Shown here in pieces: positions 1,794-22,473 of a DNA stretch of 32,000 nt. Under the pieces are notes generated by a model. That model was not told the DNA's origin. It saw nothing but the letters and a program-made list of their open reading frames with translations, and made no database searches. Each line of letters starts with the position of its first letter. Position 1 is the stretch's first letter. Origin of the DNA: an uncultured Erysipelotrichaceae bacterium. Lineage in GTDB: Bacteria > Bacillota_I > Bacilli_A > Erysipelotrichales > Erysipelotrichaceae. Location: positions 960,001 to 992,000 of the forward strand of contig OW818668.1 in NCBI GenBank assembly GCA_942493105.1, written 5' to 3'. Position numbers and translations under genes: made by a program.

Positions 1794-1980
1794 TGTTTCC
1801 AATATTAGTTGTTAATTCTGAATACAAATTCTGAGGAATTTCGTTTTCGAATTTCAAAATAATCGTAATAGGTCGGTTGCTTTTTTTATCATAATCAACC
1901 GTATTTGCTTTTCCCAAATATATAGGGTTCTGAAGTTCCATCAATTTTCTTGAACTTGCGGACAAAAATATGTAGTACAT
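1783..1980 (-). pseudogene. Out-of-frame 3' segment carrying the missing C-terminal end of the DUF3427 domain (not an independent gene)
   Basis: This frame reads ...NPIYLGKANTVDYDKKSNRPITIILKFENEIPQNLYSEL. That continues the ...GTSEPYIF end of the 909-aa ORF across the TATATATTT tract at ~1913-1927. Confidence 0.6.
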
Positions 1981-4624
1981 AGCCGTTATCTAAATTGAAT
2001 AAAATGTTTTTCCCTACTTTCGATTCTTGAGTTGTGTTATTTGGAGTCTGCCATTGAAGAGTGTTTTGGTTTAAAATTTTATCTTTATAGTTGATTGCTT
2101 CTCTAATGTCAGCATCTTTATTTAGGTCTATGAATAATAAATAGTTTTTCTCGTGTCTTAATAACCCTTGACCTCTAAAGGATGAGAACTTTTTCTCCAA
2201 ATTACAGAGTGGTGCTGTATCTGCCATTGTGTATGTTTCGTAAAGTTTGAAGAAAGGCACTACATACTCGAACTCGCCGAACTCACGTTGATATCTAAAA
2301 AGACCATATTTTATGACATCTTCAAAATACATTTTATTATAATCTGTGGTTACTTCACTCCATTGGTTTGACATTGAGACCATATTATTGTCAAGTACTA
2401 TAGGAGCTATGTATTTTCTGTACTTATCATCATCAAGAAATTTCCCCAATAGATTATTAATTGAGTGAGTTATTGAATTAATTGTAATCCCATTATACTT
2501 TGAAGAAATTTCAAGACTGATTTTCTCAAGTGATACAGTTCTATTTCGAAAGACCATCTCAAGAATAGTAAATTCTAAAGGTCTTCTTAGTGGTAAATTC
2601 GCTGAAAATTGTCTAATTAATTCTATGAAAAGAGGAGACCAATCGTTTTGATTCAATTTATCGCTTTCCATTCGAATCAAGAATTCAAGATAGCTCTTAG
2701 AGTATTTAATGAATCTAACAGGATCAGGACTTCCTTCATATAGCTCGTATTCCATTAAGAAGTATGGAATATTTTGTTTATTCATAGACTTGAAGCCGAA
2801 ATAGTTGTCTTTAAGGTATCTTAGTGATCTAAAATTCTCGTTTTGTAATTGGGAAATGATCTCATTTTTAGATATCTCATCCATTTGCACAAATGAATCT
2901 CCAGGAACCTCTCTGAACCCTTCTTTTACAGAGATCATTAGACTTTCTTTATCATAAAAGCGCTGTCCCTTAAGAGCAATAGCCATCATGAAGCTTTTTT
3001 TATAATTTCCAATAAAGTCGATGACCGTAACAAATTCTTTATCTGGTGTTTTTCTTAAACCACGTCCTAATTGTTGAATAAATATTATCGGAGAATTAGT
3101 TGGTCGTAGCATAAGTACCATATTGACTGATGGTATATCTATGCCCTCATTAAATACATCCCGCGTGAAAATAACTTCGACTGTTCCAACCTCATCTGAT
3201 TCCAATTCTTTTACATACTTTTCACGTGCTGGTACACTATCTGCGCCAGATAGAAAGACGCTTCTTATTCCTCGTTGATTAAAGGCGCTCATCATAAATT
3301 CAGCATGCTCAACACTTGCACAAAAACCCAAACATTTTAGTTTGTTACCTGTATGACCATACAATTTAATCTGTTTAACAATATAATCAACTCGGCTTTG
3401 AATGCTTAGTCTTCTTGTCAATTCGTCAATATCATTGTCGTCTAAATCAGAAAGTTTAATTCCATCAGCTTCTCGTATACCGAAATAATGAAACGGACAA
3501 ACTAATTCTTCCTCAATGGCTTCATATAGGCGAATTTCAAGAGCTATGTTATTTCTAAAAAAACTAAACAAACCATATCCATCAGTTCTTTCTGGTGTGG
3601 CAGTCATTCCCAGTATAAATTTGGGTTTAAAATATTCAATTACTTTTTGATATCCAGGAGCAAGAGCATGGTGTGTTTCATCAATCACCATATAATCAAA
3701 TTCTTGAGGACTAAAATCAAGATAATGTGTATACATGCTTTGAATTGTTGAAAACAAATATTTCGCATTTGTGTCCTTCTTAGTACCGCTTAATATTCCG
3801 CATTCAATTCCTGCACCTAAGACTCTTTTGTATGATTCAACAGCTTTATTAAGAATGTCCTCTCTATGAACCAAGAAGAGCACTCTATTTGGTTTAAATT
3901 GATGGATGTCAAAGGCAGACATATATGTTTTTCCGGTAGCTGTTGCAGCAATTACTAAACCACGATCTTCTCCTCGAGTTCTTAATTTGTGAAGATTAGC
4001 AATTGCTCTACTCTGCATTGAATTGGGTCTAACTGTTTCCTCAATAAACAGGAATTTCTCTTCTTGTTTATGTGCTTCCTTTAAAGTATTTATGAATGCT
4101 TCATATTGATCAAGGAATGCATTATCAATTGTCCTAGTCTTATTCCATAAATCGTTAAACTGACTATAAACATCGACAACAAATGGATGATCTTTTTTTG
4201 ATATTACCTTGACATTCCACTCGACGTTTTTTAGAAGGGCTTTCTCAGTAATATTGGATGAACCAATATAAAGAGTAATGTTTTCATCACTTTCGAAAAT
4301 ATATGCTTTTGTATGGAATCCACCAAATTCCTTCTGTAAATAGATCTTGGTTTCTATATTTGTAAATTCTTGAAGTTTTCGTAATGCCGCTGGGTCAGTA
4401 AAATTTAGGTAATCAGATGTAAGCACCTTTCCATATATATTTCTATCTTGGACATTCCGAATTTCACGTAGTAAAAGCTGTAAACCGCCAAAATTTATAA
4501 AAGCAACGCTGAAAATAAAACTTGAACAATTTTTAAGGCTAAAACAAATTTCGTCATACATACTAGAAATATCATTGTTTGAAATTAGTTCGATCCCGCT
4601 ATTGCTTAATGTAGGCTTTCCCAA
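1895..4624 (-). CDS. PLD-family nuclease / DExH superfamily-2 helicase / DUF3427 fusion protein; C-terminus apparently interrupted by a frameshift
   Basis: N-terminal single HKD-type motif HTKAYIF...GSSNIT. Helicase motifs AATATGKT (I), VIDETHHA (II), MTATPER (III) and QQLGRGLR (VI). The C-terminal region has the DUF3427-like pattern (LQWQTPNN...HIFVRKFKK...EPYIF) and ends prematurely at 1895. Confidence 0.85.
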   Translation of the reverse strand: MGKPTLSNSGIELISNNDISSMYDEICFSLKNCSSFIFSVAFINFGGLQLLLREIRNVQDRNIYGKVLTSDYLNFTDPAALRKLQEFTNIETKIYLQKEFGGFHTKAYIFESDENITLYIGSSNITEKALLKNVEWNVKVISKKDHPFVVDVYSQFNDLWNKTRTIDNAFLDQYEAFINTLKEAHKQEEKFLFIEETVRPNSMQSRAIANLHKLRTRGEDRGLVIAATATGKTYMSAFDIHQFKPNRVLFLVHREDILNKAVESYKRVLGAGIECGILSGTKKDTNAKYLFSTIQSMYTHYLDFSPQEFDYMVIDETHHALAPGYQKVIEYFKPKFILGMTATPERTDGYGLFSFFRNNIALEIRLYEAIEEELVCPFHYFGIREADGIKLSDLDDNDIDELTRRLSIQSRVDYIVKQIKLYGHTGNKLKCLGFCASVEHAEFMMSAFNQRGIRSVFLSGADSVPAREKYVKELESDEVGTVEVIFTRDVFNEGIDIPSVNMVLMLRPTNSPIIFIQQLGRGLRKTPDKEFVTVIDFIGNYKKSFMMAIALKGQRFYDKESLMISVKEGFREVPGDSFVQMDEISKNEIISQLQNENFRSLRYLKDNYFGFKSMNKQNIPYFLMEYELYEGSPDPVRFIKYSKSYLEFLIRMESDKLNQNDWSPLFIELIRQFSANLPLRRPLEFTILEMVFRNRTVSLEKISLEISSKYNGITINSITHSINNLLGKFLDDDKYRKYIAPIVLDNNMVSMSNQWSEVTTDYNKMYFEDVIKYGLFRYQREFGEFEYVVPFFKLYETYTMADTAPLCNLEKKFSSFRGQGLLRHEKNYLLFIDLNKDADIREAINYKDKILNQNTLQWQTPNNTTQESKVGKNILFNLDNGYVLHIFVRKFKKIDGTSEPYIFGKSKYG

Positions 4625-4857
4625 TTTGATTTCCTCGTAGTTTAATTATAACTTAATTGATCACATCATAATAAACAAATATATTATAGATCCTATTTTA
4701 AATCCTTTGGGAGTGTTAAGAATCATGCGTAAATTGATTTAGCTTTCTACGTGATCTTGAGTTTAAAAAGTTGACTTAATGTGTTTTCTGCTTTCGTGAA
4801 TCCTATGTGGATCCAGTTCAAAAATTTATGATACCAATCGATGAATAAACTGCAAAC

Positions 4858-5095
4858 GAAGTATTAGGACGAGGCTTCTTTTGGGAACTGCTCATATATT
4901 TTGGTTTGATGTTTCAGTTGTTTATGGAGACATCCAATCTAGTTGGTGGTGTACAGGTTTTCAGGATTGGCTGAGGGAAGTCGTAGAAGCAGGTCAAACT
5001 AAGATTGTCCTCTAATGCTTTGATCGCTTTAAGATAATGAGCTCGGTATTTGTTTTTGAAGGTCTCGAGATGAGATAAAGTAATTTCATTCGTTT
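4858..5095 (-). pseudogene. IS256-family (Mutator-type) transposase remnant, C-terminal part only, with in-frame stops
   Basis: The minus-strand translation is ...LSHLETFKNKYRAHYLKAIKALEDNLSLTCFYDFPQPILKTCTPPTRLDVSINN*NIKPKYMSSSQKKPRPN. It follows the IS256 Tnp pattern F..KY...YPK...SLE.N....FYDFP..I.K.IYTTN.IE..N...KR..K...FP.E. No intact ORF and no inverted repeats were identified. Confidence 0.6.
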
Positions 5096-5272
5096 CAGAT
5101 TGACAGATATCTTTGAGAACATCTCATCGATATTTCAACTTTGAAAAGTGCGCTCATTAATTCTATGTTAAAATTAGACATGGAAAATGCTATTTAAAAA
5201 GAAAATATGTGCAATATGTGCATAATAAACGATAAATAGTTTAAGACAAATGCATAATTTGTCTATTAAATA

Positions 5273-5301
5273 TTGACTTTACTAAGAACAAAATGTAATT
5301 T
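5273..5301 (+). promoter_or_regulatory. Possible sigma-A promoter of the four-gene operon
   Basis: TTGACT at 5273-5278, a 17-nt spacer ending in TG, then TAATTT at 5296-5301. The -10 element is weak. A small hairpin AGAAC/GTTCT (5308-5321) abuts the RBS GGGAGG. Confidence 0.3.
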
Positions 5302-5332
5302 AAGATTAGAACAATAGTTCTTGGGAGGAAAT

Positions 5333-5719
5333 ATGGGGTCAAGTGGTAGAGGCGAATTTGGAAATTATAAAGTAGATCGAAAAAGTGGTGGAGTCGGTAG
5401 TGGAAATAATGACACAACTATTGATATACAGTGTCCTGAATCAATTGAGAACATCCTACTTGAAGATATCAGTACTTGTGAATACTTCAAAACACTAAAT
5501 GGGTTGCCTTATGTAGGTCAAGATGTTTATATCAATTCTTTAATCATTGATGGAAGAATTGCTGTGGTCGATACAGCATCAACAAAAGTCATTGGGAATG
5601 TTCCGACTCGATATAATTACTTAATTGAGTGTATTTCTTCTATAAACTACATTGGTACAATTGAGATATCAGGTTTAATACCAATCCCGCATATAGTCGT
5701 AGAAATTCATGCAAAATAA
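5333..5719 (+). CDS. Small hypothetical protein with a Gly/Ser-rich disordered N-terminus (MGSSGRGEFGNY...GGVGSGNN) and a beta-rich C-terminal half; no recognisable family
   Basis: First gene of the operon. The strong RBS GGGAGG lies 4 nt upstream of the ATG at 5333; the track's TTG at 5321 is an alternative start, and both give Gly at position 2. Its stop overlaps the start of the next gene by 11 nt. Confidence 0.65.
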   Translation: MGSSGRGEFGNYKVDRKSGGVGSGNNDTTIDIQCPESIENILLEDISTCEYFKTLNGLPYVGQDVYINSLIIDGRIAVVDTASTKVIGNVPTRYNYLIECISSINYIGTIEISGLIPIPHIVVEIHAK

Positions 5720-7031
5720 AAAATGTCTTATAATTGGAGACGTTTTTATAGATGTTCATCTTGATGACATACAAGATGAATCTCCTATTATCCGACTTGG
5801 GGGGATTTTCCATGCTATACGGGCATTTTCAGCTATGGAGGAAAATTTTGGACATCTATATTTTGCACCAAGTTACTTAGTAGATGATATTGAACATTTC
5901 TCGAAGGAACTATCATCACAATATTCGAAATCAATTGGGGAGGTAATTAACTCACCGAATTTGATGTTAGTAAGTGACTCAAAGGAAGCTTCTTTACAGG
6001 GTTATCTCGATTTGCTAAAGTCGAAGAAAGAGATTAGTTATTCAGATAAAATTGAATTGAATATCCAAGAGTATTGCCCTACAGACGTTCTACTGTTTCC
6101 GGGGAAATATGATGTTAAAAGAATTCTTCAGTTGTTGGCAAAGCAAGATTGTAAAATACATATCGATATCCAGTATGATTTTGATCTTGATGATTTTTTT
6201 GAAGGACAAGAAATCGAAACTGTTTTTGTTTCCACATCGTCAAAGCATATACAGAGAATTGAAAATAAATCAACAATGGAGCTTATAGAAAAACTTTCCC
6301 ACTATTCCATAAAAACATTAGTTATAAAAGAAAATCGTGGAGGATCATTGATTTATGATTATGAAACTCAAAAAATATATAATATACCCGCATTTATCTC
6401 ATCGACAATACACTCAGTTGGTGTAGGAGATGTTTATAATGTAGTATATTTATGTATGTCGAAAGTGTATTCAACAATAAATGCTTCAAAATGTGCATCT
6501 TATGCGGCTTCTTTATACGCTCAGACATATGACTACATTGGTTTTAAGAATAGAATGAAATTCCTTTTGGGGAATGTAGATAAGATCTCAAGTCTAAATG
6601 GAGTTCGAGTATCTTGGGACTCAAGACCGACTATTAATGTTTATATTGCTGCGCCAGATTTCCCAACAGTTGATACAAGAATTATTGATGAAGTCCAATC
6701 TTCTTTAAAGTATCACAATTTTAGCCCACGATTACCAATAAGGGAGAATGGATTGTATCTTGACAGTATGTCAAAAAAGGAAGAGTTGACACTTTTCTAC
6801 AAGGATATTGAGCTACTAAGCAGATGCGATTTGTTAATTGCAATTATTCTGATTAATGATCCTGGAACATATGTTGAGCTTGGTATTTTTAAACAAATGG
6901 GGAAACCTACAATCGTTTATGATCCTTTTGGAATATGTCAAAACATGTTTGCAAAGAACACAGCCGACTATTTTTGTACAAATCTTTCTGAGGTTGTAGA
7001 TGCAACATTTGTTGCCATGAGAGGAACATGA
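5709..7031 (+). CDS. Fusion protein: N-terminal PfkB/ribokinase-family kinase domain + C-terminal nucleoside 2-deoxyribosyltransferase-like (NDT/PF05014-like) domain
   Basis: PfkB signatures: IIGDVFIDVHL...RLGGIFHAIRAFSAM at the N-terminus and IHSVGVGDVYNVVYL (DTxGAGDxF-type). The NDT-like half has VYIAAPDFP and INDPGTYVELGIFKQMGKPTIVYDP (D.GT..E.G....GKP motif with Asp and Glu retained). Confidence 0.75.
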   Translation: MQNKKCLIIGDVFIDVHLDDIQDESPIIRLGGIFHAIRAFSAMEENFGHLYFAPSYLVDDIEHFSKELSSQYSKSIGEVINSPNLMLVSDSKEASLQGYLDLLKSKKEISYSDKIELNIQEYCPTDVLLFPGKYDVKRILQLLAKQDCKIHIDIQYDFDLDDFFEGQEIETVFVSTSSKHIQRIENKSTMELIEKLSHYSIKTLVIKENRGGSLIYDYETQKIYNIPAFISSTIHSVGVGDVYNVVYLCMSKVYSTINASKCASYAASLYAQTYDYIGFKNRMKFLLGNVDKISSLNGVRVSWDSRPTINVYIAAPDFPTVDTRIIDEVQSSLKYHNFSPRLPIRENGLYLDSMSKKEELTLFYKDIELLSRCDLLIAIILINDPGTYVELGIFKQMGKPTIVYDPFGICQNMFAKNTADYFCTNLSEVVDATFVAMRGT

Positions 7032-7032
7032 A

Positions 7033-7659
7033 ATGAAGTATGATGCATTAATCTTGGCTTCTGGTGGGATGGATTCTACAGTCCTTTTGTATCAATTGAG
7101 AAATGAAATGAAAAATCCAATTATTTTATTCCTTGATTATGGACAACACTGTAGAGATACTGAGTATAATACCCTAAAATTAGTTATTCCTGAAGAGTTT
7201 AAAGAGAACATTAGGCTAGTTAATATTAAAGATATCTACAGAGAATCTAGCTCAGTTATGATTCACGAAACTGATTTGTGGAAAAATGATGTAAAAGCTG
7301 ATGACATGTATCTTCCATATAGGAATCTGCTATTTCTTTCTATAGGATCCGCATATGCTCAATCTTTAGGAATAAAAAATGTATATTCTGCTTTTATAAA
7401 TAGCAATCATGCTAAAGAAATTGATTGTTCTGTGGAGTTTTTTTCGCGTCTTGAGGAATTGCTTTCAGAATACGGCTCAGTGAAAATAATAACACCATTT
7501 CGCGAACTTACAAAGACAGATGTTGCTAGATTAGGACTCGAACTTAATGCTCCTATTTCGTTAACATATTCGTGTCAAATTAATTCCAAAAATCCATGTG
7601 GAGCATGTCCAAACTGCGTTGATAGGCTACAGGCAATAAAAAACCTGATTCAAGATTGA
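7033..7659 (+). CDS. QueC-like PP-loop ATPase (7-cyano-7-deazaguanine synthase family), orphan copy
   Basis: N-terminal PP-loop ILASGGMDSTV. C-terminal Zn-cysteine cluster SCQINSKNPCGACPNCVDRL as in QueC. The ~208-aa length fits the family. It starts 1 nt after the upstream stop. Confidence 0.8.
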   Translation: MKYDALILASGGMDSTVLLYQLRNEMKNPIILFLDYGQHCRDTEYNTLKLVIPEEFKENIRLVNIKDIYRESSSVMIHETDLWKNDVKADDMYLPYRNLLFLSIGSAYAQSLGIKNVYSAFINSNHAKEIDCSVEFFSRLEELLSEYGSVKIITPFRELTKTDVARLGLELNAPISLTYSCQINSKNPCGACPNCVDRLQAIKNLIQD

Positions 7660-7670
7660 AGGATGATTTT

Positions 7671-8315
7671 ATGGATGCAATCAAATATCGAAGCGAGATT
7701 GACAAATTAGTTCGGTTTATTGGGATGCAGAATTTTTGTTTTGAGCAATTTGATGATAGATGCGTATATGAACATATGAGCGCTGTCATTGTAGATTCGA
7801 TATTACAAGCAGGAATGAATTACGATAGAATTGTTCTTCCTAGAGTTCGGATGCTAATAGAGAAATATGATGATTTCAGAACTACTGAGGATTTTTTGGT
7901 ACTTATTCAAGCAAAACCACTAGGCCAATTAATTAGTTGGCGTAATGAAAAGAAACTAGAAAGAATAAGAAAATTGACTTGGTACTTCTATGAACGTAGG
8001 ATAAATAAAATCTCTGATCTTCAGGAATGGTTTCGGACTGAAGAAAACATAATGAATCTTAGATTAATTAATGGTATTGGTCCAAAAACTGTCGACTACA
8101 TGAAAAAGCTTGTTGGAATAGATACATTTGCTGTTGATCGACATTTGTTTAAATTTCTGGAATTGTCCGGAGTGTGTACAACTGACTATGTGGAAGCAAC
8201 TATAATATATGAAAACGCTTCACTAGAGCTACATATTGATAAATGGACACTTGACAAAGCTATATGGGACCTAATGTCGGCCAATGGATTATTGCACTTA
8301 AGGTTAATCATTTAA
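7671..8315 (+). CDS. HhH-GPD superfamily DNA glycosylase-like protein (EndoIII/OGG2-like)
   Basis: Helix-hairpin-helix LINGIGPKTVDYMKKLVGIDTFAVDRHLF parallels Nth LPGVGRKTANVV...IAVDTHIF. The Lys and the Asp ~17 residues later are retained. The ATG at 7671 has the RBS AAGGA; the track's TTG at 7656 overlaps the queC-like stop by 4 nt and is an alternative start. Confidence 0.65.
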   Translation: MDAIKYRSEIDKLVRFIGMQNFCFEQFDDRCVYEHMSAVIVDSILQAGMNYDRIVLPRVRMLIEKYDDFRTTEDFLVLIQAKPLGQLISWRNEKKLERIRKLTWYFYERRINKISDLQEWFRTEENIMNLRLINGIGPKTVDYMKKLVGIDTFAVDRHLFKFLELSGVCTTDYVEATIIYENASLELHIDKWTLDKAIWDLMSANGLLHLRLII

Positions 8316-8957
8316 TGATTGAGGCATCCAATATATGCTTCACCGACGAATTATGAAGTAGGTAACAATACTGTATATTTCAATGAAACAAATTACTTTT
8401 AAAAATGGACATCCCTGGTATATTATGACAAACCCGAATTCGCTGAGCGCTTTATTACAAACCTATTGCAATAGGGTGAATGATTCAATGGATTTATGTA
8501 TTAATCAAAATTCTTCCTAATAGCGTACCTTTAGGTGATTCTATAATCCTGGTATTTTGTTCAAAATGTTTCATGTGTTTCTATTGTAAAGTTAAAAAAT
8601 CTTGATCACTAAGTATCTAATAGACGAAATCATGATTTGGAGTATTTTGAGATAGTAACAGTACTTCGGTAAAATGTCATGTTGGTATACCTTCACCAGA
8701 ATTTTAGCAATACTCTGACTATACAAAATGTTAATGGCAGATAAAGTATAGAAGGTAATTGCGGATTTTTGAGAGGTTTGAAGGCTGGTTTAAACGAGGG
8801 AAAGAAGAAACCTAATCGCATCTTCCTCTTTACCATGATTTCATTCAATAAATGCGAATATTTGAATTATCATTTCATAGTCAATACACTTTAAACCATT
8901 AGAAAACTGGCTGATTTAGAGGGTTCATGTACTTTGGTGAGGTTATGAGATATAAAA

Positions 8958-8988
8958 ATATCTTCTTGCATATTTATGAAGAAGATAT
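8958..8988 (-). terminator. Hairpin downstream of the GntR/EIIB unit (weak intrinsic terminator)
   Basis: ATATCTTCTT (8958-8967) pairs with AAGAAGATAT (8979-8988). On the minus strand the stem is followed by TTTTAT. Confidence 0.35.
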
Positions 8989-9112
8989 ATTGAGAACTTT
9001 TCAATATTTTATGCTGTAATTTCCGGCATTTTCATTTTGTATGGTCCGAGATTTCTAAAATCAATTAATCTACAATTAAAAATATATTGTGTTGAAATTT
9101 TTGACCTTCAAC

Positions 9113-14195: not shown

Positions 14196-15233
14196 ATGAA
14201 ACCAACAATCAAGGATGTTGCTAAGAAATCAGGTTTCTCGATCACATCCGTTTCTCAAGTACTAAACAACAAACCCAATGCGATCCCTGTTCAAAGCAAG
14301 GCTAAAATCATTGAAGCCGCCAAGGAATTGAACTATCGTCCCAATCGCTTGGCTGTCAGTCTGGTCACAAAGTCAACAAAAGTCTTAGGTTTGGTTATTC
14401 CGGATAACAGTAACTTATTCTTCTCAGAGCTTTCAAAATCCATCGAAGTTGCTGCTCGTAAAAAAGGCTACAGTATCATTTACGGCAATACCAATAACGA
14501 ATCCTTCAGAGATATCGAATACTTACGCTTATTTGTCGACCTTCAAGTCGATGGGATCATTGTTACCAAGGCATCCAGTTTAAACGTCGAAGAAGATGTT
14601 GAAAACTTAAGTTTCTTAGAACACGTCAGAAAGCCTTATGTGATCGTTGATAGACCGACTCAAGGCATCGAAAGTAATCTTGTCTATGTCGATAACGTTA
14701 TCGGCGGAGAATTGGCAACCCAACATTTGTTGGATCTAGGACATACAAAGATCGGTTGTTTTACGGGTCCTCACAGCTTAGTCAACAGTGAACTGCGCTT
14801 GGAAGGTTATAAAAAAGCCATCCAAAAATCAGGACTAGATTTTGATCAGAGTTTGATATTTGAAGGGAATTTCTCTATGGGTCTGGAAAGTGCCGCCATG
14901 GATCACTTTCTAAAAGAAAAAGTTAGTGCTGTTTTCTGTTTCAACGACATCATGGCATTTGGACTCTATCGTGAAGCAGCACATAGAGGCATCAACATCC
15001 CCAACGATCTATCCATCGTTGGTTACGATAATGTCCAATTGGCAGACATCGTCTATCCTGGTTTGACCACCATTCATCAACCCATCGACGCGATCGGTGA
15101 AGAAGCCATCAAGATGTTGGTCAACGTCATCGAAGACGCAAAAAACGACACTAAAAACATCCAAACCAAAACATTGGAACCCAGTCTTATCCTTAGAGGT
15201 TCTACTCGTCATCTTGAAAGGAAATCGTCATGA
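14196..15233 (+). CDS. LacI-family transcriptional regulator
   Basis: N-terminal HTH MKPTIKDVAKKSGFSITSVSQVLNN. The rest is a periplasmic-binding-protein-like sugar-binding core. Confidence 0.9.
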   Translation: MKPTIKDVAKKSGFSITSVSQVLNNKPNAIPVQSKAKIIEAAKELNYRPNRLAVSLVTKSTKVLGLVIPDNSNLFFSELSKSIEVAARKKGYSIIYGNTNNESFRDIEYLRLFVDLQVDGIIVTKASSLNVEEDVENLSFLEHVRKPYVIVDRPTQGIESNLVYVDNVIGGELATQHLLDLGHTKIGCFTGPHSLVNSELRLEGYKKAIQKSGLDFDQSLIFEGNFSMGLESAAMDHFLKEKVSAVFCFNDIMAFGLYREAAHRGINIPNDLSIVGYDNVQLADIVYPGLTTIHQPIDAIGEEAIKMLVNVIEDAKNDTKNIQTKTLEPSLILRGSTRHLERKSS

Positions 15234-16126
15234 ACATCTTAAATTTCGGATCACTGAATATCGATAAGGTCTATATGGTTGATCATATCGTTGAAAAAGG
15301 CGAAACCATCTTGACCCATAACTATGAAGTCTTCATGGGTGGTAAAGGTCTTAATCAATCCATTGCCCTACAAAGAGCGGGACTACAAGTCGTTCATGCG
15401 GGACTCATTGGTTATGACGGACAACTGCTGGTCAACTTCTTAAAAGAGAACGATGTTCAATGTGATCTGATCCACGAAGTTGATGATGTCTGTGGTCATG
15501 CGATCATCCAAATCAATCCTAAGGGACAAAATGCCATCTTGGTTCATGGTGGTTCCAATCAAAGAATACAACCTGAATATATCGATTGGGTCTTAAATCA
15601 AGACCACCAGTGTGAATGGATGATCGTTCAAAACGAAACTTCAAACTTAGATTATCTGCTCAAAGCCGCTAAGAAAAAAGGACTCAAGATCATCATGAAT
15701 CCTTCACCCATCACCGATTCCTTACTCAAGTGTTCCCTTGAAAACGTTGACTTATTCATCATCAATGAAATCGAAGGCAAAGCCTTAAGCGGCCAAAGTG
15801 AAGCTTCAGAAATCCTAAAGGCTTTATCTCATAAATTCCCGCACGCAACCATTGTGTTGACCTTGGGTGAAGAAGGATCTCTGTTTAAAGCTAAAGAAAG
15901 TGTTATCACTCAAAAAGCCTTCATCGTCAACGCAGTTGACACAACAGCTGCCGGCGATACCTTCAGCGGTTACTTCTTGGCCAGTTATCTTCAAGGTCAA
16001 AGCGTTCAAGAAAGTCTCAAGATCGCCAGTGCTGCTTCTGCCATCTCAGTCACTTTAAAAGGAGCCTCGAATTCGATCCCTTGCTTAGACGATGTGAAAA
16101 AGTGGATCAAAGCTCAGCATGTCTAG
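15230..16126 (+). CDS. rbsK: Ribokinase
   Basis: GGKGLNQSIA (GGKGANQ motif) and DTTAAGDTFSGYF. An ATGA overlap links it to the regulator gene. Confidence 0.85.
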   Translation: MNILNFGSLNIDKVYMVDHIVEKGETILTHNYEVFMGGKGLNQSIALQRAGLQVVHAGLIGYDGQLLVNFLKENDVQCDLIHEVDDVCGHAIIQINPKGQNAILVHGGSNQRIQPEYIDWVLNQDHQCEWMIVQNETSNLDYLLKAAKKKGLKIIMNPSPITDSLLKCSLENVDLFIINEIEGKALSGQSEASEILKALSHKFPHATIVLTLGEEGSLFKAKESVITQKAFIVNAVDTTAAGDTFSGYFLASYLQGQSVQESLKIASAASAISVTLKGASNSIPCLDDVKKWIKAQHV

Positions 16127-16739
16127 AAAAGAAGTTCACACATGGATCGTCAAATTCCTTAAAGTCACTTTAGGAATTGCGATCGCTGCCTTAGGGATCA
16201 CATTGACCTACAAGAGCGGACTTGGCAGCAGTGCCATGTCGACGGTCTCTCAAGGGGTCAGTCGTGTACTTCACATCCAAGTAGGGACAGCGAATATAGG
16301 TTTGAATGGACTCTTCTTTGGGATAGCCTTGATCGGTCAAAGAAATAAGATCGGGATAGGGACTCCAATGATCGTGTTTGGTTTAGGTTTATTCATCAAT
16401 CTCTTCGTTTCACTATTAAGTTCAGTTCAGTTTAATGCCTTCATGAATATCGTGATCAATGGCTTGGGGATCATCCTCAACGCAGGCGGTATCGCCATCA
16501 TGGTCATCGTAAACTTCGGCATTGGACCTTTAGAACTCATCACTGAAATGATTACGAAGAAAACGAAATGGTCTTATCGAAAATCAAAACTTGCCTTTGA
16601 TGCAATGATGCTGATTCTCGGGATCTCACTGGGAGGTGATTACGGAATAGGAACCCTCATGAACGTCTTAATGTTTGGATTTATTATGCAATTAGTCTTC
16701 GACGTGCATAAAAAACAAAGAAATCATCACCAAATGTAA
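16119..16739 (+). CDS. Polytopic membrane protein (YczE/YitT-like), possible transporter or accessory permease
   Basis: 206 aa with ~5-6 hydrophobic helices, embedded in the salvage operon with an 8-nt overlap on rbsK. The family assignment is tentative. Confidence 0.5.
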   Translation: MSRKEVHTWIVKFLKVTLGIAIAALGITLTYKSGLGSSAMSTVSQGVSRVLHIQVGTANIGLNGLFFGIALIGQRNKIGIGTPMIVFGLGLFINLFVSLLSSVQFNAFMNIVINGLGIILNAGGIAIMVIVNFGIGPLELITEMITKKTKWSYRKSKLAFDAMMLILGISLGGDYGIGTLMNVLMFGFIMQLVFDVHKKQRNHHQM

Positions 16740-16748
16740 TGGAGGAAA

Positions 16749-17852
16749 ATGATGAAAAAGCTATTATTAGTATTGGTTGCATTGATTATGACCACTGTAT
16801 CCTTGACTTCATGCGCTAAAAAAGCTGAACCTAAAGCTTTGAGAGTCGTCGTCGTCATCAATACGAACCTAGGCGATAAAGCCTTCTCTGATTTAGTCTG
16901 GGGCGGCGTTCAAAAAGCTGCTTCTGAATTCGACTTGGAAGTCAAAGCAGTTGAATTGGGCGGCGATCCGACCAAACAAGAACCTACTTTAACAGAATTG
17001 TGCGAATCCAAAGAATGGGATCTAATCGTTGCCGGTACTTTCAACTTATTGGAAGCCACCAAAAAAGCAGCTGAAAAATATCCTAATCAAAAATTCTTGG
17101 TTTATGATGCAGCTGTTGATTTCGCTGGCGGCAAATTCAAAAATGTCGTATCCGTTCTTTCAAAACAAAATGAAGGCTCTTACTTAGCTGGTGCATTGGC
17201 TGCTTTGTTGACCCAATCCACAACCGATCCTCTCGTTAATGCTGAGAAGATCATCGGCTTCGTAGGCGGCGGTGAAAATGCTGCCATCAATGACTTCTTG
17301 ATTGGCTACATCGAAGGCGCAAAAGCTGTCGATCCTGCTACCAAGATCTTGTTCTCATACGTTGGTAACTTCACTGATTCTGCTAAAGCTAAAGAATTGA
17401 CTTTGGCTCAATATCAGCAAGGTGCTGACATTGTCTTCGCCGTTGCCAGTTCCGCTGGTTTCGGAGTTTATGATGCTGCTAAAACAGCTGACAAATATGC
17501 CATTGGTGTTGACCAAGACAAAGCTTTACAGTTCAAAGCAGTCGGCGACATCACTCAAGCTAAACATATTCCTACATCCGTCGTTAAGAATCTTGATGTC
17601 TTGATTTATGACAAACTGTCTCAATTCGTTAAGGGAACCATGCCTTGGGGAACACACGAAGCAGTTGGTCTAAAAGGTAACGGCATGGCTTTAGCCAACA
17701 ACGAATATACAAAACTCGTTGTATCTGCTGATATCTTGGCTCAAGTTGAAGCTCTAAAAGCGAAGATCGTTGCTGGAACGACAGTTGTTCCTACAGCCAT
17801 CGGTTTAACCACAGAACAGATTCAAGTCTACAAAGACAAAGCTGGTCAATAA
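16749..17852 (+). CDS. BMP-family (PnrA/Med-like) ABC transporter substrate-binding lipoprotein, nucleoside-binding type
   Basis: Signal peptide with the lipobox LTSC. The BMP-like core includes GFVGGGENAAINDF and the FAVASSAGFGV pattern. Confidence 0.85.
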   Translation: MMKKLLLVLVALIMTTVSLTSCAKKAEPKALRVVVVINTNLGDKAFSDLVWGGVQKAASEFDLEVKAVELGGDPTKQEPTLTELCESKEWDLIVAGTFNLLEATKKAAEKYPNQKFLVYDAAVDFAGGKFKNVVSVLSKQNEGSYLAGALAALLTQSTTDPLVNAEKIIGFVGGGENAAINDFLIGYIEGAKAVDPATKILFSYVGNFTDSAKAKELTLAQYQQGADIVFAVASSAGFGVYDAAKTADKYAIGVDQDKALQFKAVGDITQAKHIPTSVVKNLDVLIYDKLSQFVKGTMPWGTHEAVGLKGNGMALANNEYTKLVVSADILAQVEALKAKIVAGTTVVPTAIGLTTEQIQVYKDKAGQ

Positions 17853-17864
17853 GTTATTATCCGC

Positions 17865-17902
17865 GATACAGAGGCCTCTATGGCCTCTGTATCCATTATT
17901 TT
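17865..17902 (+). terminator. Intra-operon hairpin/attenuator after the binding-protein gene
   Basis: The perfect 12-bp GC-rich stem GATACAGAGGCC (17865-17876) / GGCCTCTGTATC (17882-17893) is followed by CATTATTTT. Confidence 0.65.
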
Positions 17903-17925
17903 AATTAGAAAACGGGGTCAGATTC

Positions 17926-19497
17926 ATGAGCGAAAACATTATGGCAGAAGAATACATCTTGTCGATGGAAAACATTACTAAGATCTACAGTAATGGTTTT
18001 ATCGCCAACAAGAATGTCAATTTCAAAGTCAAAAAAGGTGAGATCCATGCCTTGATCGGTGAAAACGGAGCAGGCAAAAGCACATTGATGAAAGTGCTTT
18101 TTGGACAAGAACAACCTGATTCTGGCGAGATATTCTACAAAGGTAAGAAAACAAACATCACCAATCCTTTGGTGGCTTTACATATGGGAATCGGGATGGT
18201 CCATCAACACTTTATGTTGGTTCCATCACTGACTGTCGCAGAGAATATGGTCTTAGGGGTAGAACCAGGTAAATATGGCATGTTTAGCTATAAAGAAGCG
18301 GTCAAACTCACCAACGAGATCTCAAAGAAATACAACCTTCCGATCGATGCTGAAGCTAAAATCATGGATCTTCCGGTTGGATTTAAACAACGTGTAGAAA
18401 TATTAAAGATCCTGTTAAGAGGCGTGGATGTGTTGATTCTTGATGAACCAACCGCAGTCTTGACTCCTCAAGAAACAGACGAACTTTTCAAACAACTTAA
18501 AGTCCTTAAAGAAAAAGGCTATACGATCATCTTCATCTCGCATAAACTTCATGAGATCAAAAAGTTATGTGATAACTTAACGGTCCTAAGAAATGGAAGA
18601 GTGACCGGAACAGCTAAAGTCAGTGATCTTTCTGAACAAGAAATTTCGAAAATGATGGTTGGTCGAGATGTCTTCTTGACCATCGATAAAGACGTGGCTC
18701 AACCTAAAGAAACCGTATTATCTGTCAAGAATCTTTCTTGGGTCGATAAACATGGTAAACGAGTCGTCAACAATCTTTCATTCAGTGTACGCGCCGGTGA
18801 AATATTAGGCATCGCCGGTGTTGAAGGTAATGGTCAACGTGAATTGACCAATCTGATTGCCAGACTTGAAGAAAACCAAATCGGTGAAATCTTACTCTAT
18901 GGTAAGAGCATCGCTAAACAATCCATTCGTGAAATTCGTGAACAAAAAATCTCGCATATATCTGAAGATCGAATGACTTTTGGGACTGTATACGAAGCCA
19001 CCATCGAAGAAAACATCATCTCTGATCGTTTCTATAAAAAAGAGTTCAATAAGAACTATCTCTTAGATGCTAAAAAAATAAAAAAACACGTGAATGAATT
19101 GATCAAAGAATACAATGTCAAAACGGATAGCAAAGATTTACCGATTCGAACTTTATCTGGCGGTAACATGCAGAAAGTCGTTGTGGCCCGGGAATTCTCT
19201 TCGAATCCCAAATTGGTCATTGCGAATCAACCAACCCGCGGCATCGACGTTGGAGCCAGTGAATTCATCCGAAAGAAACTGGTATCACTTCGTGATCAAG
19301 GTGCAGCTGTTTTACTGGTATCAGCCGACTTAAACGAAGTCATTGAAGTCAGCGACAGCATCGTCGTCATGTGTGATGGCAGTATCGTTGCTTATTTGAA
19401 AGATGCTAAAAAAGTAACTGAGGAACAACTCGGTGAATACATGCTGGGCATCAAGAAACAAAGCGATGAAGAAATAAGAGAGGTCGTTCATGATTAA
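17926..19497 (+). CDS. ABC transporter ATP-binding protein with two fused ATPase domains (sugar/nucleoside CUT2 type)
   Basis: Walker A GENGAGKST, signature LSGGNMQKV, Walker B LILDEPT. The 523-aa length fits a duplicated cassette. Confidence 0.9.
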   Translation: MSENIMAEEYILSMENITKIYSNGFIANKNVNFKVKKGEIHALIGENGAGKSTLMKVLFGQEQPDSGEIFYKGKKTNITNPLVALHMGIGMVHQHFMLVPSLTVAENMVLGVEPGKYGMFSYKEAVKLTNEISKKYNLPIDAEAKIMDLPVGFKQRVEILKILLRGVDVLILDEPTAVLTPQETDELFKQLKVLKEKGYTIIFISHKLHEIKKLCDNLTVLRNGRVTGTAKVSDLSEQEISKMMVGRDVFLTIDKDVAQPKETVLSVKNLSWVDKHGKRVVNNLSFSVRAGEILGIAGVEGNGQRELTNLIARLEENQIGEILLYGKSIAKQSIREIREQKISHISEDRMTFGTVYEATIEENIISDRFYKKEFNKNYLLDAKKIKKHVNELIKEYNVKTDSKDLPIRTLSGGNMQKVVVAREFSSNPKLVIANQPTRGIDVGASEFIRKKLVSLRDQGAAVLLVSADLNEVIEVSDSIVVMCDGSIVAYLKDAKKVTEEQLGEYMLGIKKQSDEEIREVVHD

Positions 19498-20560
19498 CAA
19501 GATTGAAAATCAATTCAAGTTCATACGAATTGCCATATCCATATCCATCGCCCTATTATTGGCCTTCCTGATCATTTCTTTTGTCAGTAAAGATCCATTA
19601 TTTGCGATGTATAACTTGATCGTAGGACCTTTTGAAAACATCAGAAGAGTAGGCAATATCGTCGAGATCATGATCCCGCTTCTGTTTACAGGGGTTGGAG
19701 TCAGTATCATGTATTCGGCTGGGCAGATCAATATGGCTTCTGAAGGTGCCTTCTTCTTAGGTGGTGTTGCGGCGGCTTATGTATCGGTTACCTTCCTATT
19801 GCCTTATGGGATCCATCCTGTGATGGCAATGGTAGCTGGGGGTTTGATTGGTGGATTGATCGGGTTGATCCCAGCGATCTTGTTTGTCAGATTCAAAGCA
19901 TTGCCTGTCGTATCTTCACTTATGCTCAACTACATCAGTTATTTCTTAGGGATGTATGTCATTCACTATATTATCTTTGATCCAGAAACAGGTTATCTCA
20001 GTTCATTTGCGTATAAAGAAACTGCACTTTTACCCAAAATGTTTTCTGTAACACGAATCCATTGGGGTTTAGTCATTGGTTTGATTGTGGTTGTCTTAGG
20101 TTATCTCTTCCTTAAGAAAAGTAAATGGGGTTATGCCATTCGTATGATCGGGATGAATCCTAACTTTGCTCAATATTCTGGTATCAATGTTGGTTTCTAT
20201 ATCTTATTGTGTCAGCTGATTGGCGGAGCCATTGCCGGGATCGGTGGAGCTGTTGAACAATTGGGTATGTACAGTCGTTTCCAATACCAAAAACTATCAG
20301 GTCATGGATTTGATGGAGTCTTGGTTGCGATCTTAGCCAACTATAATCCTAAGTTTGTTCCACTAGCTGCTTTCTTTATTGCGTATGTTCGAGTCGGTGC
20401 TGATGTCATGGCACGTAATTCGGATGTCCCAATTGAAATCGTATCGATCATTCAAGCTGTCATCATTGTCTTTGTGGCTTCTGAAAGATTCTTAGCCGGA
20501 TGGAAACACAGAAAAATCGTTAAAGCATCGCAAGCTCGCTTTGCAGTTGAGGAGGCCTAA
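19490..20560 (+). CDS. ABC transporter permease (CUT2/BMP-associated)
   Basis: 356-aa polytopic membrane protein with an 8-nt overlap on the ATPase gene. Confidence 0.85.
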   Translation: MINKIENQFKFIRIAISISIALLLAFLIISFVSKDPLFAMYNLIVGPFENIRRVGNIVEIMIPLLFTGVGVSIMYSAGQINMASEGAFFLGGVAAAYVSVTFLLPYGIHPVMAMVAGGLIGGLIGLIPAILFVRFKALPVVSSLMLNYISYFLGMYVIHYIIFDPETGYLSSFAYKETALLPKMFSVTRIHWGLVIGLIVVVLGYLFLKKSKWGYAIRMIGMNPNFAQYSGINVGFYILLCQLIGGAIAGIGGAVEQLGMYSRFQYQKLSGHGFDGVLVAILANYNPKFVPLAAFFIAYVRVGADVMARNSDVPIEIVSIIQAVIIVFVASERFLAGWKHRKIVKASQARFAVEEA

Positions 20561-20561
20561 T

Positions 20562-21515
20562 ATGGATGTCATTTTCAAGAGCATCTTCTCAACGGTCTTC
20601 TTCTATACGATCTTGCGTGTTGCGACCCCTTTGATTTTTGTTTCGATGGCTGCTTTGATCGTTAGAAAAGGTGGCATCATGTGTATTGCCTTTGAAGGCA
20701 TGATGTTGTTTGCAGCTTTAGGTGGTGTCATTGGTAGTGCATTGACTCAGAATCTATTTGTAGGATTAATCTTAGGTACTCTATTTGGAGTTACCATCGC
20801 GATGATCTTCGCCTATTTCGTACTTGTCTTACAATCCAACAATGTCTTGACTGGTCTTGCCTTGAATATCTTAGGTAGTGGTGGTACGGTCTTCATGTTG
20901 TTTGCCCTGACAGGTGAAAAAGGGACATCGTCTTCACTTAGAAGTCTGCAGGTTCCTTCATGGAATATCCCCATCATAAAAGATATTCCGATCTTAGGAG
21001 AAATCATATCAGGTCATAACCTCTTTACCTATCTTGCTTTCTTGACCGTCATCTTAGTGTATATCTTGGTCTATAAGACAAGATTAGGTTTAAGGATACG
21101 TTCCGTCGGTGAAAATCCGCAAGCTGCAGAATCGGTTGGGATCAAGGTCGTAAGGACCAAAGTCATCTCATTGTTGATCGGTGGTGTGATTGCATCCTTA
21201 GGCGGAATGTATATGTCGATGGGTTACTTGCCTTTCTTTACCCGAGACATGATGAGTGGACGCGGTTTTATCGGGATCGCTGCTCAAAATCTAGGAGGCG
21301 GAATCCCGTTAAATACCATGTTGTCGGCAATGTTGTTTGGCTCTGCCGAAGCCATATCGAATGTCTTCCAGTCTTTGCGTTTGCCTTCAGAATTCGTACA
21401 AATGCTGCCTTATATCGTTACGATCGTTGGCTTGATCTCCATCGGTGGTGTTAAAAAGGAAAGCAAGAGTAAAATCAAGAAAATTAAAGAAATAAAGGAG
21501 AGTACCCATGAATAA
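20562..21515 (+). CDS. ABC transporter permease, second subunit
   Basis: Polytopic membrane protein. The ATG at 20562 follows the RBS GAGGAGG; the track's upstream start at 20541 lies inside the previous gene. Confidence 0.85.
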   Translation: MDVIFKSIFSTVFFYTILRVATPLIFVSMAALIVRKGGIMCIAFEGMMLFAALGGVIGSALTQNLFVGLILGTLFGVTIAMIFAYFVLVLQSNNVLTGLALNILGSGGTVFMLFALTGEKGTSSSLRSLQVPSWNIPIIKDIPILGEIISGHNLFTYLAFLTVILVYILVYKTRLGLRIRSVGENPQAAESVGIKVVRTKVISLLIGGVIASLGGMYMSMGYLPFFTRDMMSGRGFIGIAAQNLGGGIPLNTMLSAMLFGSAEAISNVFQSLRLPSEFVQMLPYIVTIVGLISIGGVKKESKSKIKKIKEIKESTHE

Positions 21516-22473
21516 GACCCCTATTATCATCGATTGTGACCCTGGGCATGATGATGCCATCGCTTTACTGATCGCTTTAGCCAGCGATAAATTTGACCTC
21601 AGAGGCATTACGACCGTCGCTGGAAATCAAACCTTAGCCAAGACGACAGCCAATGCACTGAAGGTTTTGGAATTATGCAAAAGAACTGAAATCAAAGTCG
21701 TCCCAGGAAGAAAAAACCCATTCATGAAAGAAGTCATCGTTGCCAATGATGTGCACGGTGAAAGTGGAATGGACGGCCCAGTTTTACCGATCCCAACTAC
21801 CAAACCTTATCCAATGTTCGCAGCTGAATTCATCGCTGACGAAGTTGAAAAATGCCCAACAAAAATGACTTTAGTTGCAGTGGGTCCTTTCACCAACATC
21901 GCAACCTTCTTATTGGCCTATCCGCATCTACACAGTAAGATCGAAAAGATCCATGTCATGGGTGGTGGTATCTATGAAGGCAATCGTACTTATTTGGCTG
22001 AATTCAATGTCTGGAATGATCCGGAAGCCGCCAAAGTCGTTACTAATTCTAAAATACCTGTCCATTTCTTTGGATTGGATGTTACCCATCGCGCTGTTAT
22101 CTTAAAAGAAGAATTTGAAATATTCAGAAATGAAAAAGGTCCTATCTTCCAATTCGTCGCAGACCTCTTAGATTTCTTTGCGATCTGCTATATTGGAGAA
22201 CGCGGATTACCAGGCTGTCCAATGCATGATTCTTGTGCAGTCGCCAGTTTGATCGATCTCTCACTGTTTGTTGGAGAAGAAGCCTTCATCGATATTGAAC
22301 TCGATGGTAAATCAAGAGGCGGATGTGTGGTTGACTTAAGACCAGTCGGACGACGTGTGGATGCCAACAACGGATTCTTCTACTACGATGTAGATCGTCC
22401 TCGTTTCTTACAACTGATCATTGATTCTTGTCGCAAATTAGAAAGTGACATTAAAGCAAAGGAGCAAGCATGA
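21508..22473 (+). CDS. Nucleoside hydrolase (IUNH/Rih family), paralog 1
   Basis: N-terminal signature IIDCDPGHDDAIAL (DxDxxxDD). The 321-aa length fits the family. Confidence 0.9.
   Translation: MNKTPIIIDCDPGHDDAIALLIALASDKFDLRGITTVAGNQTLAKTTANALKVLELCKRTEIKVVPGRKNPFMKEVIVANDVHGESGMDGPVLPIPTTKPYPMFAAEFIADEVEKCPTKMTLVAVGPFTNIATFLLAYPHLHSKIEKIHVMGGGIYEGNRTYLAEFNVWNDPEAAKVVTNSKIPVHFFGLDVTHRAVILKEEFEIFRNEKGPIFQFVADLLDFFAICYIGERGLPGCPMHDSCAVASLIDLSLFVGEEAFIDIELDGKSRGGCVVDLRPVGRRVDANNGFFYYDVDRPRFLQLIIDSCRKLESDIKAKEQA

Follow-up and report, generated by a model that had tools for sequence, protein, structure and literature searches.

A QueC-like gene lies in a mobile four-gene cassette that may be a deazaguanylation-type anti-phage system

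We analyzed a 32-kb stretch of DNA (the window; positions 960,001 to 992,000 of contig OW818668.1, GenBank assembly GCA_942493105.1) from an uncultured Erysipelotrichaceae bacterium, focusing on a gene for a QueC-like protein that a first-pass annotation, made from the sequence alone, had singled out as detached from the queuosine pathway. All open reading frames (ORFs) of at least about 60 aa in the window were compared with Pfam and NCBIfam, and defense-gene matches were obtained with the PADLOC v2.0.0 models. The QueC-like gene, which we call gene C, comes third in a compact operon of four genes, A-B-C-D, at positions 5333-8315:

Gene A, 5333..5719, + strand: 128 aa, HIRAN-like protein; ATG start after GGGAGG, with 5-nt spacing
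Gene B, 5709..7031, + strand: 440 aa, fusion of a PfkB-like kinase and a nucleoside 2-deoxyribosyltransferase (NDT)
Gene C, 7033..7659, + strand: 208 aa, QueC-like PP-loop ATPase; ATG start
Gene D, 7671..8315, + strand: 214 aa, homologue of the Ogg2/Cap11-like HhH-GPD glycosylases/apurinic-apyrimidinic (AP) lyases

Genes A and B overlap by 11 nt, and gene B stops 1 nt short of gene C. We set the start of gene A at ATG 5333, which has the GGGAGG upstream, in place of the TTG at 5321 in the automatic ORF call. The ATG of gene D at 7671 is preceded by AAGGA, 6 nt upstream, and an alternative TTG at 7656 would give a protein of 219 aa. Scans for promoters and terminators around the cassette did not rise above shuffled background, and the sole terminator-like site (9011-9029) lies ≈0.7 kb beyond gene D. 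As the first-pass annotation had reported, queD, queE, queF, folE, tgt and dpdA are all missing from the Pfam and NCBIfam matches of the window ORFs, and neither a preQ1 riboswitch nor any other RNA family reached the Rfam gathering threshold in the window.

The ORF of gene C is complete, in agreement with that annotation: it opens with an ATG, encodes 208 aa, and matches the Pfam QueC family PF06508 over residues 5-204 (E 6.8e-36, 124 bits). Its product carries the PP-loop S10-G-G-M-D-S15 and the four zinc-site cysteines C181, C189, C192, and C195 (C-x7-C-x2-C-x2-C), which are invariant in 29 relatives; in canonical QueC, the first of these spacings is x8 rather than x7. Its score of 103.1 bits against TIGR00364, the QueC equivalog model, falls short of the cut-off of 150.3, and against PRK11106 it reaches 41 bits, where the cut-off is 378. 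Its best match among solved structures, whether the single sequence or a 29-member family profile is used as the query, is Cap9 (9nto_B), ahead of two QueC structures. Cap9 belongs to the type IV cyclic oligonucleotide-based antiphage signaling system (CBASS), in which it adenylates 7-carboxy-7-deazaguanine (CDG) and joins it to the CD-NTase at Gly2 (bioRxiv 10.1101/2025.04.06.647259, Wassarman et al.; PDB 9nto).

Glu129 of gene C is invariant in the family and stands where E. coli QueC has Y131 and Cap9 has Y115, the aromatic residue that stacks on the deazaguanine, so that the YPDC motif becomes E129-I-D-C. In E. coli QueC, Y131 is essential, and the Y131A variant is inactive (PMC13329287). 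The deazaguanine-contacting residues D117 and R86 of Cap9 are retained as D131 and R97, as is the Cap9-type cysteine motif Cx7CxxCxxCxD, which reads CQ(x)6CxxCxxCxD in gene C and CE(x)6CxxCxxCxD in Cap9. Two stretches, F121-INSNHAKEIDC-S133 and S180-CQ-x6-CGxCPNC-x-x-R198, form a signature that sets the family apart from YPDC-type QueC, and the spacing within Y36-G-Q-H-x4-E44 is unlike that of the canonical YxQxHxxE (motif definitions from PMC13329287). A search of 1.84 billion representatives of 50% identity clusters returned 20 proteins at E<=1e-30, all of them in the discrete family of gene C; below ≈112 bits, the same search runs into a continuum of YPDC-type QueC-like proteins.

The decisive evidence on the nature of gene C, which the first-pass annotation overlooked, is its operon partners. 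Gene C has 1881 database matches at E<=1e-5, the top 120 of which are 64-100% identical to it. A scan that took one genome per species yielded 80 loci, distributed over Bacillota, Bacteroidota, Spirochaetota, Pseudomonadota, Planctomycetota, Acidobacteriota, and TM6, and the four window proteins were then compared with 87 loci by tblastn. The order A-B-C(-D) is kept in 84-85 of the 87 loci, and gene B lies immediately upstream of gene C in 85 of them. Neighboring genes overlap or abut throughout, with median gaps of -4, -8, and -1 nt. The cassette also occurs on megaplasmids of Bacillus cereus-group strains, Ralstonia, and Cupriavidus, whose gene C members are labeled '7-cyano-7-deazaguanine synthase' by PGAP, without the gene symbol queC. 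Among sequenced phage genomes, we found no member of the family, only canonical phage QueC at <35% identity, and the complete genomes of E. coli gave no match to an enterobacterial copy of the cassette. In Proteus mirabilis H63, the full cassette and a canonical queC reside on the same replicon, 2.5 Mb apart.

These data bear directly on whether gene C could simply be an ordinary preQ0 synthase that has become unlinked from queDEF. The QueC-like fold, the PP-loop, the zinc site, and the PGAP product name would all fit such an enzyme. The sub-cut-off TIGR00364 score, the loss of the YPDC tyrosine, the non-que partners in ≈85 loci, the discreteness of the family at E<=1e-30, the withheld queC symbol, and the true queC that accompanies the cassette in P. 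mirabilis all speak against it; the idea is largely refuted, and we regard it as very improbable. The suggestion of the first-pass annotation that gene C is a repurposed paralogue of the Cap9 or QatC kind and not the housekeeping enzyme is supported. Its non-equivalence to QueC follows from the TIGR00364 score, the best match to Cap9, Glu129, the fixed operon partners, and the coexistence with canonical queC, and gene C falls into a discrete family of its own rather than clustering tightly with canonical QueC.

Gene B, the upstream neighbor of gene C, comprises a PfkB-like kinase region (residues ≈1-290) followed by an NDT domain (≈306-440). The latter matches Pfam Nuc_deoxyrib_tr PF05014 with an E value of 1.2e-11 (45.2 bits, cut-off 28.8), and the family profile matches the NDT structure 6evs across the full domain at E 2.2e-11. 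Invariant or near-invariant positions of this domain, in the numbering of the window protein, are Y312, A314-A315-P316-D317-F318, D366, and D384-x-G386-T387-x-x-E390-x-G392; among them, the active-site positions Y312, D366, and E390 are invariant in the family. Matches of the N-terminal region are weak or partial, with E values of 5.5e-5 to NCBIfam kinases and 2e-4 to PDB 2qcv, and PF00294 is not matched at E<=0.01. Within this region, G10..D15, G31-G32, and S236-x-G238-x-G240-D241 are invariant, motifs of the G..D, GG, and GxGD type that we take to be PfkB hallmarks. In some lineages, genes B and C are fused, as in P0241 (655 aa, PfkB-NDT-QueC-like) and on the Bacillus mycoides plasmid p509 (L088 4666-6642, ≈655 aa).

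NDT-like domains are established partners or effectors in retron defense systems, and NDT-like retron effectors are reported to deplete NAD+ or nucleotides. Gene B might likewise be a toxic effector, an NDT-like N-glycosidase that depletes NAD+ or nucleotides under the control of a regulatory switch formed by A and C (with D where present), in which case no deoxyribose would be transferred to a protein-linked base. The conserved active-site Glu, Asp, and Tyr of the domain would suit such a role, as would the regulatory use of deazaguanylation in type IV CBASS. We nevertheless consider it unlikely, as the C-terminal domain best matches true type II nucleoside deoxyribosyltransferases over its full length (6evs, 2.2e-11), and simple depletion would leave both the apparently intact fused PfkB kinase domain and the B-C fusions unexplained.

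The product of gene A begins with MGSSGRGEFGNY, and its family follows the consensus MGSxGxGxF..Y. Neither an alignment of 29 homologues nor one of 68 shows any variation at M1 and G2, and S3, G5, G7, F9, and Y12 change rarely or not at all. The disordered Gly-rich linker that follows (≈13-33) varies in both length and sequence among homologues and leads into a HIRAN-like β domain at residues 34-128. An AlphaFold2 (AF2) model built from the 68-sequence alignment reproduces this division, with pLDDT > 90 at residues 34-128 and < 50 at 12-30. The top Foldseek matches are lp_0118 and the HIRAN domains of HLTF and Rad5, with a probability of 1.0 and template modeling (TM) scores of 0.5-0.63, the disordered tail being counted in the query length. 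HIRAN domains bind DNA 3'-OH ends. At the sequence level, Pfam HIRAN (PF08797) weakly matches 2 of the 68 gene A members (best E 0.0035), a frequency that ties it for first place with two chance-level families, and it does not match the protein of the window itself. The family profile gave no meaningful match to PDB sequences, and homologues numbered 3 by single-sequence search and 318 by profile. Substrates of deazaguanylation are reported to share three hallmarks: a Met-Gly motif at the N terminus, a tail that is long and unstructured, and an operon shared with a QueC-family gene (PMC13279940). Gene A has all three, and we propose that its product is a candidate acceptor of a base modification.

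Gene D has no match in Pfam. Its family profile instead finds the Ogg2-type 8-oxoguanine glycosylase/AP-lyases 9o00 (3.8e-7), 3fhf (1e-6), and 3fhg, with E values in the range 4e-7 to 3e-6. Two residues that never vary in the family, the Lys in G-x-G-x-K and the Asp in (a)vDRH, align with the GxGxK and DRH of archaeal Ogg structures, which presumably hold the catalytic Lys and Asp. The PADLOC OGG (Cap11) model matches 15 of 25 gene D members (best 4.1e-8; window protein 2.3e-4). Gene D is accessory: it is absent from 14 loci, 13 of which are in Bacillales, where a subclade lacks it. A MutT-like NUDIX gene is found directly upstream of gene A in 8 of the D-less loci as well as on the B. mycoides plasmid p509, where the order is NUDIX, A, and the B-C fusion, with a retron HNH/AAA pair ≈3 kb away.

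Several features indicate that the cassette is mobile and resides among defense genes. Its flanks differ completely among genomes and include prophage tail genes, a DnaB-bearing element, and a transposase. A copy 96% identical to that of the window (L090 11390-19832) sits in a different island, together with a CAP12/PCTIR TIR-domain protein, an SNF2 helicase, an N6/N4 methyltransferase, and a ResIII protein. Across 145 immediately flanking ORFs, the PADLOC models match dGTPase (10), PDC-S07 NUDIX (9), PifA, type I, III, and IV restriction enzymes, GajB, a CBASS cyclase, and ThsB; the cassette itself is not called as a system by PADLOC v2.0.0, whose models match gene C and gene D singly. The G+C content is 32-33% over positions 1-10 kb of the window, which include the cassette, compared with 40-42% in the housekeeping genes at 13-24 kb, and the low-GC block, consisting of a helicase-NUDIX pair, a type IV restriction enzyme, and the cassette, looks horizontally acquired. 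Repeats beside the cassette are short, chance-level matches only, with neither a target-site duplication nor terminal inverted repeats.

The genes around these loci vary by lineage. A dGTPase-type HD phosphohydrolase (best 1.3e-150) adjoins the cassette in 10 loci of distant phyla (L016, L026, L030, L034, L054, L058, L059, L070, L080, and L087), though neither its position nor its orientation is constant; the association could reflect plain defense-island clustering or a functional link, for example, through the supply of deoxyguanosine. In five Bacteroidota loci, from Pedobacter, Mucilaginibacter, Dyadobacter, and a Chitinophagales metagenome-assembled genome (L035, L038, L039, L047, and L062; ≈3775-4290), a protein of ≈155-170 aa that starts with MCIIIDTN and looks PIN-like is encoded directly upstream of gene A. 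The corresponding position in seven mostly Rhodobacterales loci (L072, L073, L077, L078, L082, L085, and L086; ≈3500-4140) is taken by a DUF6441-type protein that looks phage-structural and suggests a prophage or gene transfer agent setting. In the window, the operon is flanked by two stretches of ≈0.7-0.8 kb each, 4625-5332 and 8316-9112, without any ORF of at least 60 aa, and tblastn found no match in either to the NUDIX, PIN-like, or DUF6441 neighbors known from other loci.

The remaining genes of the window encode components of a phosphotransferase system (PTS), GntR and LacI regulators, a ribokinase, a nucleoside ABC transporter, two IU-nucleoside hydrolases, PNP, HAD phosphatases, and NIF3. 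Further regions outside the cassette are as follows:

3-1385, + strand: Schlafen-group-3-type helicase with weak Nhi/AbiO matches; its 5' end may be cut by the window edge
1386-1793, + strand: NUDIX gene directly after the helicase, PADLOC candidate PDC-S07 (8.6e-41), of the same family as the NUDIX upstream of gene A in D-less Bacillales cassettes
1895-4624, - strand: 909-aa PLD-nuclease/SF2-helicase/DUF3427 protein, divergent from the cassette; PADLOC type IV methyl-directed restriction enzyme (5.4e-154)
14196-24130, + strand: housekeeping nucleoside-salvage cluster, with LacI, a PfkB ribokinase, a YitT membrane protein, a Bmp/PnrA-type ABC transporter, two IU-nucleoside hydrolases, and PNP
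24321-25879, - strand: pair of neighboring ORFs (197 and 322 aa) without a Pfam match, between the PNP gene and NIF3

The restriction enzyme places a modified-DNA-dependent nuclease beside a cassette whose own substrates may be modified guanine nucleotides. The nucleoside-salvage cluster is a nearby source of nucleosides and bases and has no syntenic tie to the cassette in other genomes. The ORF pair at 24321-25879 lies in a second low-GC patch (32-36%) and may be another small acquired module.

How, then, might the four genes work together? We propose that A-B-C-D is a mobile candidate anti-phage cassette that follows the logic of type IV CBASS and QatBC in the absence of a CD-NTase, a TGT, and the Qat ATPase and nuclease, a proposal to which we assign a probability of roughly 0.5. 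Because gene A has the substrate hallmarks, gene C is Cap9-like, gene D is Cap11-like, and gene B would perform a Cap10-like base exchange, the cassette may represent a third deazaguanylation-type system. What the sequences show is the gene content, the synteny, the conserved motifs, the fold assignments, the defense-island context, and the non-equivalence of gene C to QueC; we infer each chemical step of the following scheme, as well as which base is used, what triggers the system, and what its effector output is.

After removal of the initiator Met, Gly2 of gene A would form the end of a flexible Gly-rich tail that enters the active site of gene C. Gene C would adenylate the carboxylate of a CDG-type substrate, and attack by the Gly2 amine would yield a base-protein amide, as in Cap9 chemistry. 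Gene B would take the place of Cap10, with its NDT domain adding 2'-deoxyribose at the free N9 and its PfkB domain phosphorylating the sugar at the 5' position, either before or after ligation. Given that B-C fusions exist and that the His/Lys/Glu pocket of gene C is polar, it is plausible that gene B acts first and that gene C ligates a nucleotide instead of a free base. The HIRAN-like domain of gene A would then target the conjugate to DNA 3' ends, and gene D, or the MutT-like NUDIX in the D-less variants, would reverse or police the glycosidic or phosphate linkage.

Taken to its most specific form, this scheme would produce a protein-nucleotide conjugate in which Gly2 of gene A is amide-linked through C7 to a 7-deaza-2'-deoxyguanosine 5'-phosphate built by gene B. 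The conjugate would be joined to, or incorporated at, HIRAN-recognized 3' ends, capping phage DNA with protein, and gene D or the NUDIX would undo the linkage. We rate this particular product as a long shot. If correct, it would constitute a new immune effector chemistry, base-linked protein-DNA conjugation, and would indicate the fate of the free N9 in the deazaguanine adduct, a step that has been left open for type IV CBASS.

The main competing reading treats the same enzymes as a pathway for small-molecule nucleotides. B and C would synthesize a modified purine 2'-deoxynucleotide or recover it by salvage: the NDT domain would form the deoxynucleoside, the PfkB domain the deoxynucleoside monophosphate (dNMP), and gene C an amide or nitrile. 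The product could be an antiviral nucleotide analogue, a precursor for DNA modification, or an intermediate of plain purine salvage, with gene D or the NUDIX sanitizing the host DNA or nucleotide pool and gene A as a DNA-binding accessory. An NDT and a kinase do form a coherent route from base to dNMP, the B-C fusions suggest channeling, and the polar NSNHAKE pocket of gene C suits a sugar-phosphate substrate. The alternation of an Ogg-like enzyme with a MutT-like NUDIX would correspond to the two arms of guanine-lesion sanitation, and a dGTPase is adjacent in the 10 loci described above. Purine salvage was in fact proposed by Libby et al. (PMC13329287). What such a pathway leaves unexplained is the invariant Met-Gly-Ser-x-Gly-x-Gly start of gene A on a hypervariable disordered tail, and plain salvage is ill suited to a low-GC mobile defense-island cassette that coexists with ordinary salvage and que genes. 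We consider this explanation possible but doubtful.

The proposal of a deazaguanylation-type defense cassette also faces evidence that weighs against it. The PfkB assignment of gene B derives from weak matches and motifs and is accordingly putative, and the HIRAN assignment of gene A comes from predicted structure, with marginal sequence support. Foldseek searches with the AF2 model of gene C (pLDDT 78) cannot tell Cap9 from QueC, as TM scores are 0.63-0.72 for both. Because Glu replaces the pocket Tyr, the base handled by gene C may differ from CDG, or CDG may be bound differently; the altered pocket also keeps alive the earlier suggestion that another carboxylate is used. Finally, some hosts of the cassette (TM6, Peloplasma, and Treponema) may lack CDG synthesis.

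Protein deazaguanylation was discovered in 2025, and two systems are recognized, type IV CBASS and, by inference, Qat; in both, the step after attachment of the base is obscure. The present cassette pairs the same kind of ligase and Gly-tailed acceptor with enzymes of readable chemistry, predicted to carry out deoxyribosyl transfer, phosphorylation, N-glycosidic cleavage, and DNA 3'-end binding, and it therefore makes the missing downstream step directly accessible to experiment. The analysis also corrects the preQ0 synthase annotation that family members carry in databases, and it contributes a candidate defense system for which PADLOC v2.0.0 makes no system call. In the literature on QueC together with PfkB, a deoxyribosyltransferase, or HIRAN, we found only Libby et al. 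2026 (PMC13329287) to touch on the cassette; genes A and D, the defense context, and the deazaguanylation reading appear undescribed.

Gene C shares with canonical QueC (B. subtilis 3bl5 and Pectobacterium 2pg3) the fold (TM 0.66-0.72), the PP-loop, the RN motif, the Asp-Cys of YPDC, and the four-Cys zinc site. It differs in sequence, with 21-22% identity in Foldseek structural alignments and 27-35% in tblastn comparisons with annotated or phage QueC genes, in having EIDC for YPDC, and in its location in a mobile cassette without que neighbors. Linkage to queD/queE is itself found in about 30% of the members of canonical QueC, which forms Cluster 1 of PF06508.

Among the closest described systems are the PF06508 'Cluster 4' proteins of Libby et al. 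(2026), which are ≈10 aa shorter than QueC, come in many cases from Proteobacteria, and share their operons with a PfkB-PF05014 fusion gene in ≈89% of cases (PMC13329287). Gene B is a fusion of the PfkB-PF05014 type beside a gene C of 208 aa, and the gene C family is likely to be Cluster 4. The motifs printed for Cluster 4 are YGQ(x)6E and CH(x)5CxxCxGCxK, with no literal match to the YGQH(x)4E and CQ(x)6CGxCPNCxxR of the gene C family, and PF00294 is reported for the Cluster 4 partner gene, whereas gene B does not reach it; a Gly-tail protein, an Ogg-like gene, or a defense context is not mentioned in that paper (PMC13329287).

In QatABCD, QatB has an unstructured N terminus with an essential MGTS motif and is encoded next to QatC (PMC13279940). 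The cassette resembles QatBC in combining a QueC-family enzyme with a small partner whose unstructured N terminus starts with MG(T/S)S (PMC13279940, PMC13376578, PMC13639016). QatC, at ≈400 aa, carries N- and C-terminal extensions and a remodeled active site, in contrast to the 208 aa of gene C, which scores 21.6 bits against the QatC model NF041925 (cut-off 280). Neither a QatA KAP ATPase nor a QatD TatD nuclease lies beside gene C, and QatB has no known fold relatives, whereas gene A is HIRAN-like.

From type IV CBASS, the cassette differs in carrying the tail on a small HIRAN-like protein in place of a CD-NTase and in having a PfkB-kinase/NDT fusion where CBASS has the TGT-fold Cap10; the window contains neither a CD-NTase nor a TGT-like Cap10. 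Elsewhere, cyclase models match one member each among the 145 flanking ORFs, TGT is absent from the 25 commonest flanking families, and the cassette is without a recognizable CBASS effector. In the Cap9 family, by comparison, a CD-NTase is adjacent in 67% of members. Gene C is also longer than Cap9 (208 versus ≈185 aa) and has Glu in place of the stacking Tyr. In both systems, a short QueC-family ATPase with a PP-loop and zinc site accompanies a partner that presents Met-Gly on a flexible Gly/Ser-rich tail, in an operon that encodes an N-glycosyl-transferring enzyme and is located in defense islands. Gene B, like Cap10, would exchange a base on a pentose, and the optional Ogg-like gene D has its counterpart in Cap11, present in about a third of type IV CBASS operons (bioRxiv 10.1101/2025.04.06.647259). 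The N-terminal peptide of the type IV CBASS CD-NTase is GGSGGSFGSGFDPR, and the CdnD peptide M-GGSGGSFGSGF is modified on G2 (bioRxiv 10.1101/2025.04.06.647259); the N terminus of gene A resembles both this CdnD peptide and the MGTS of QatB.

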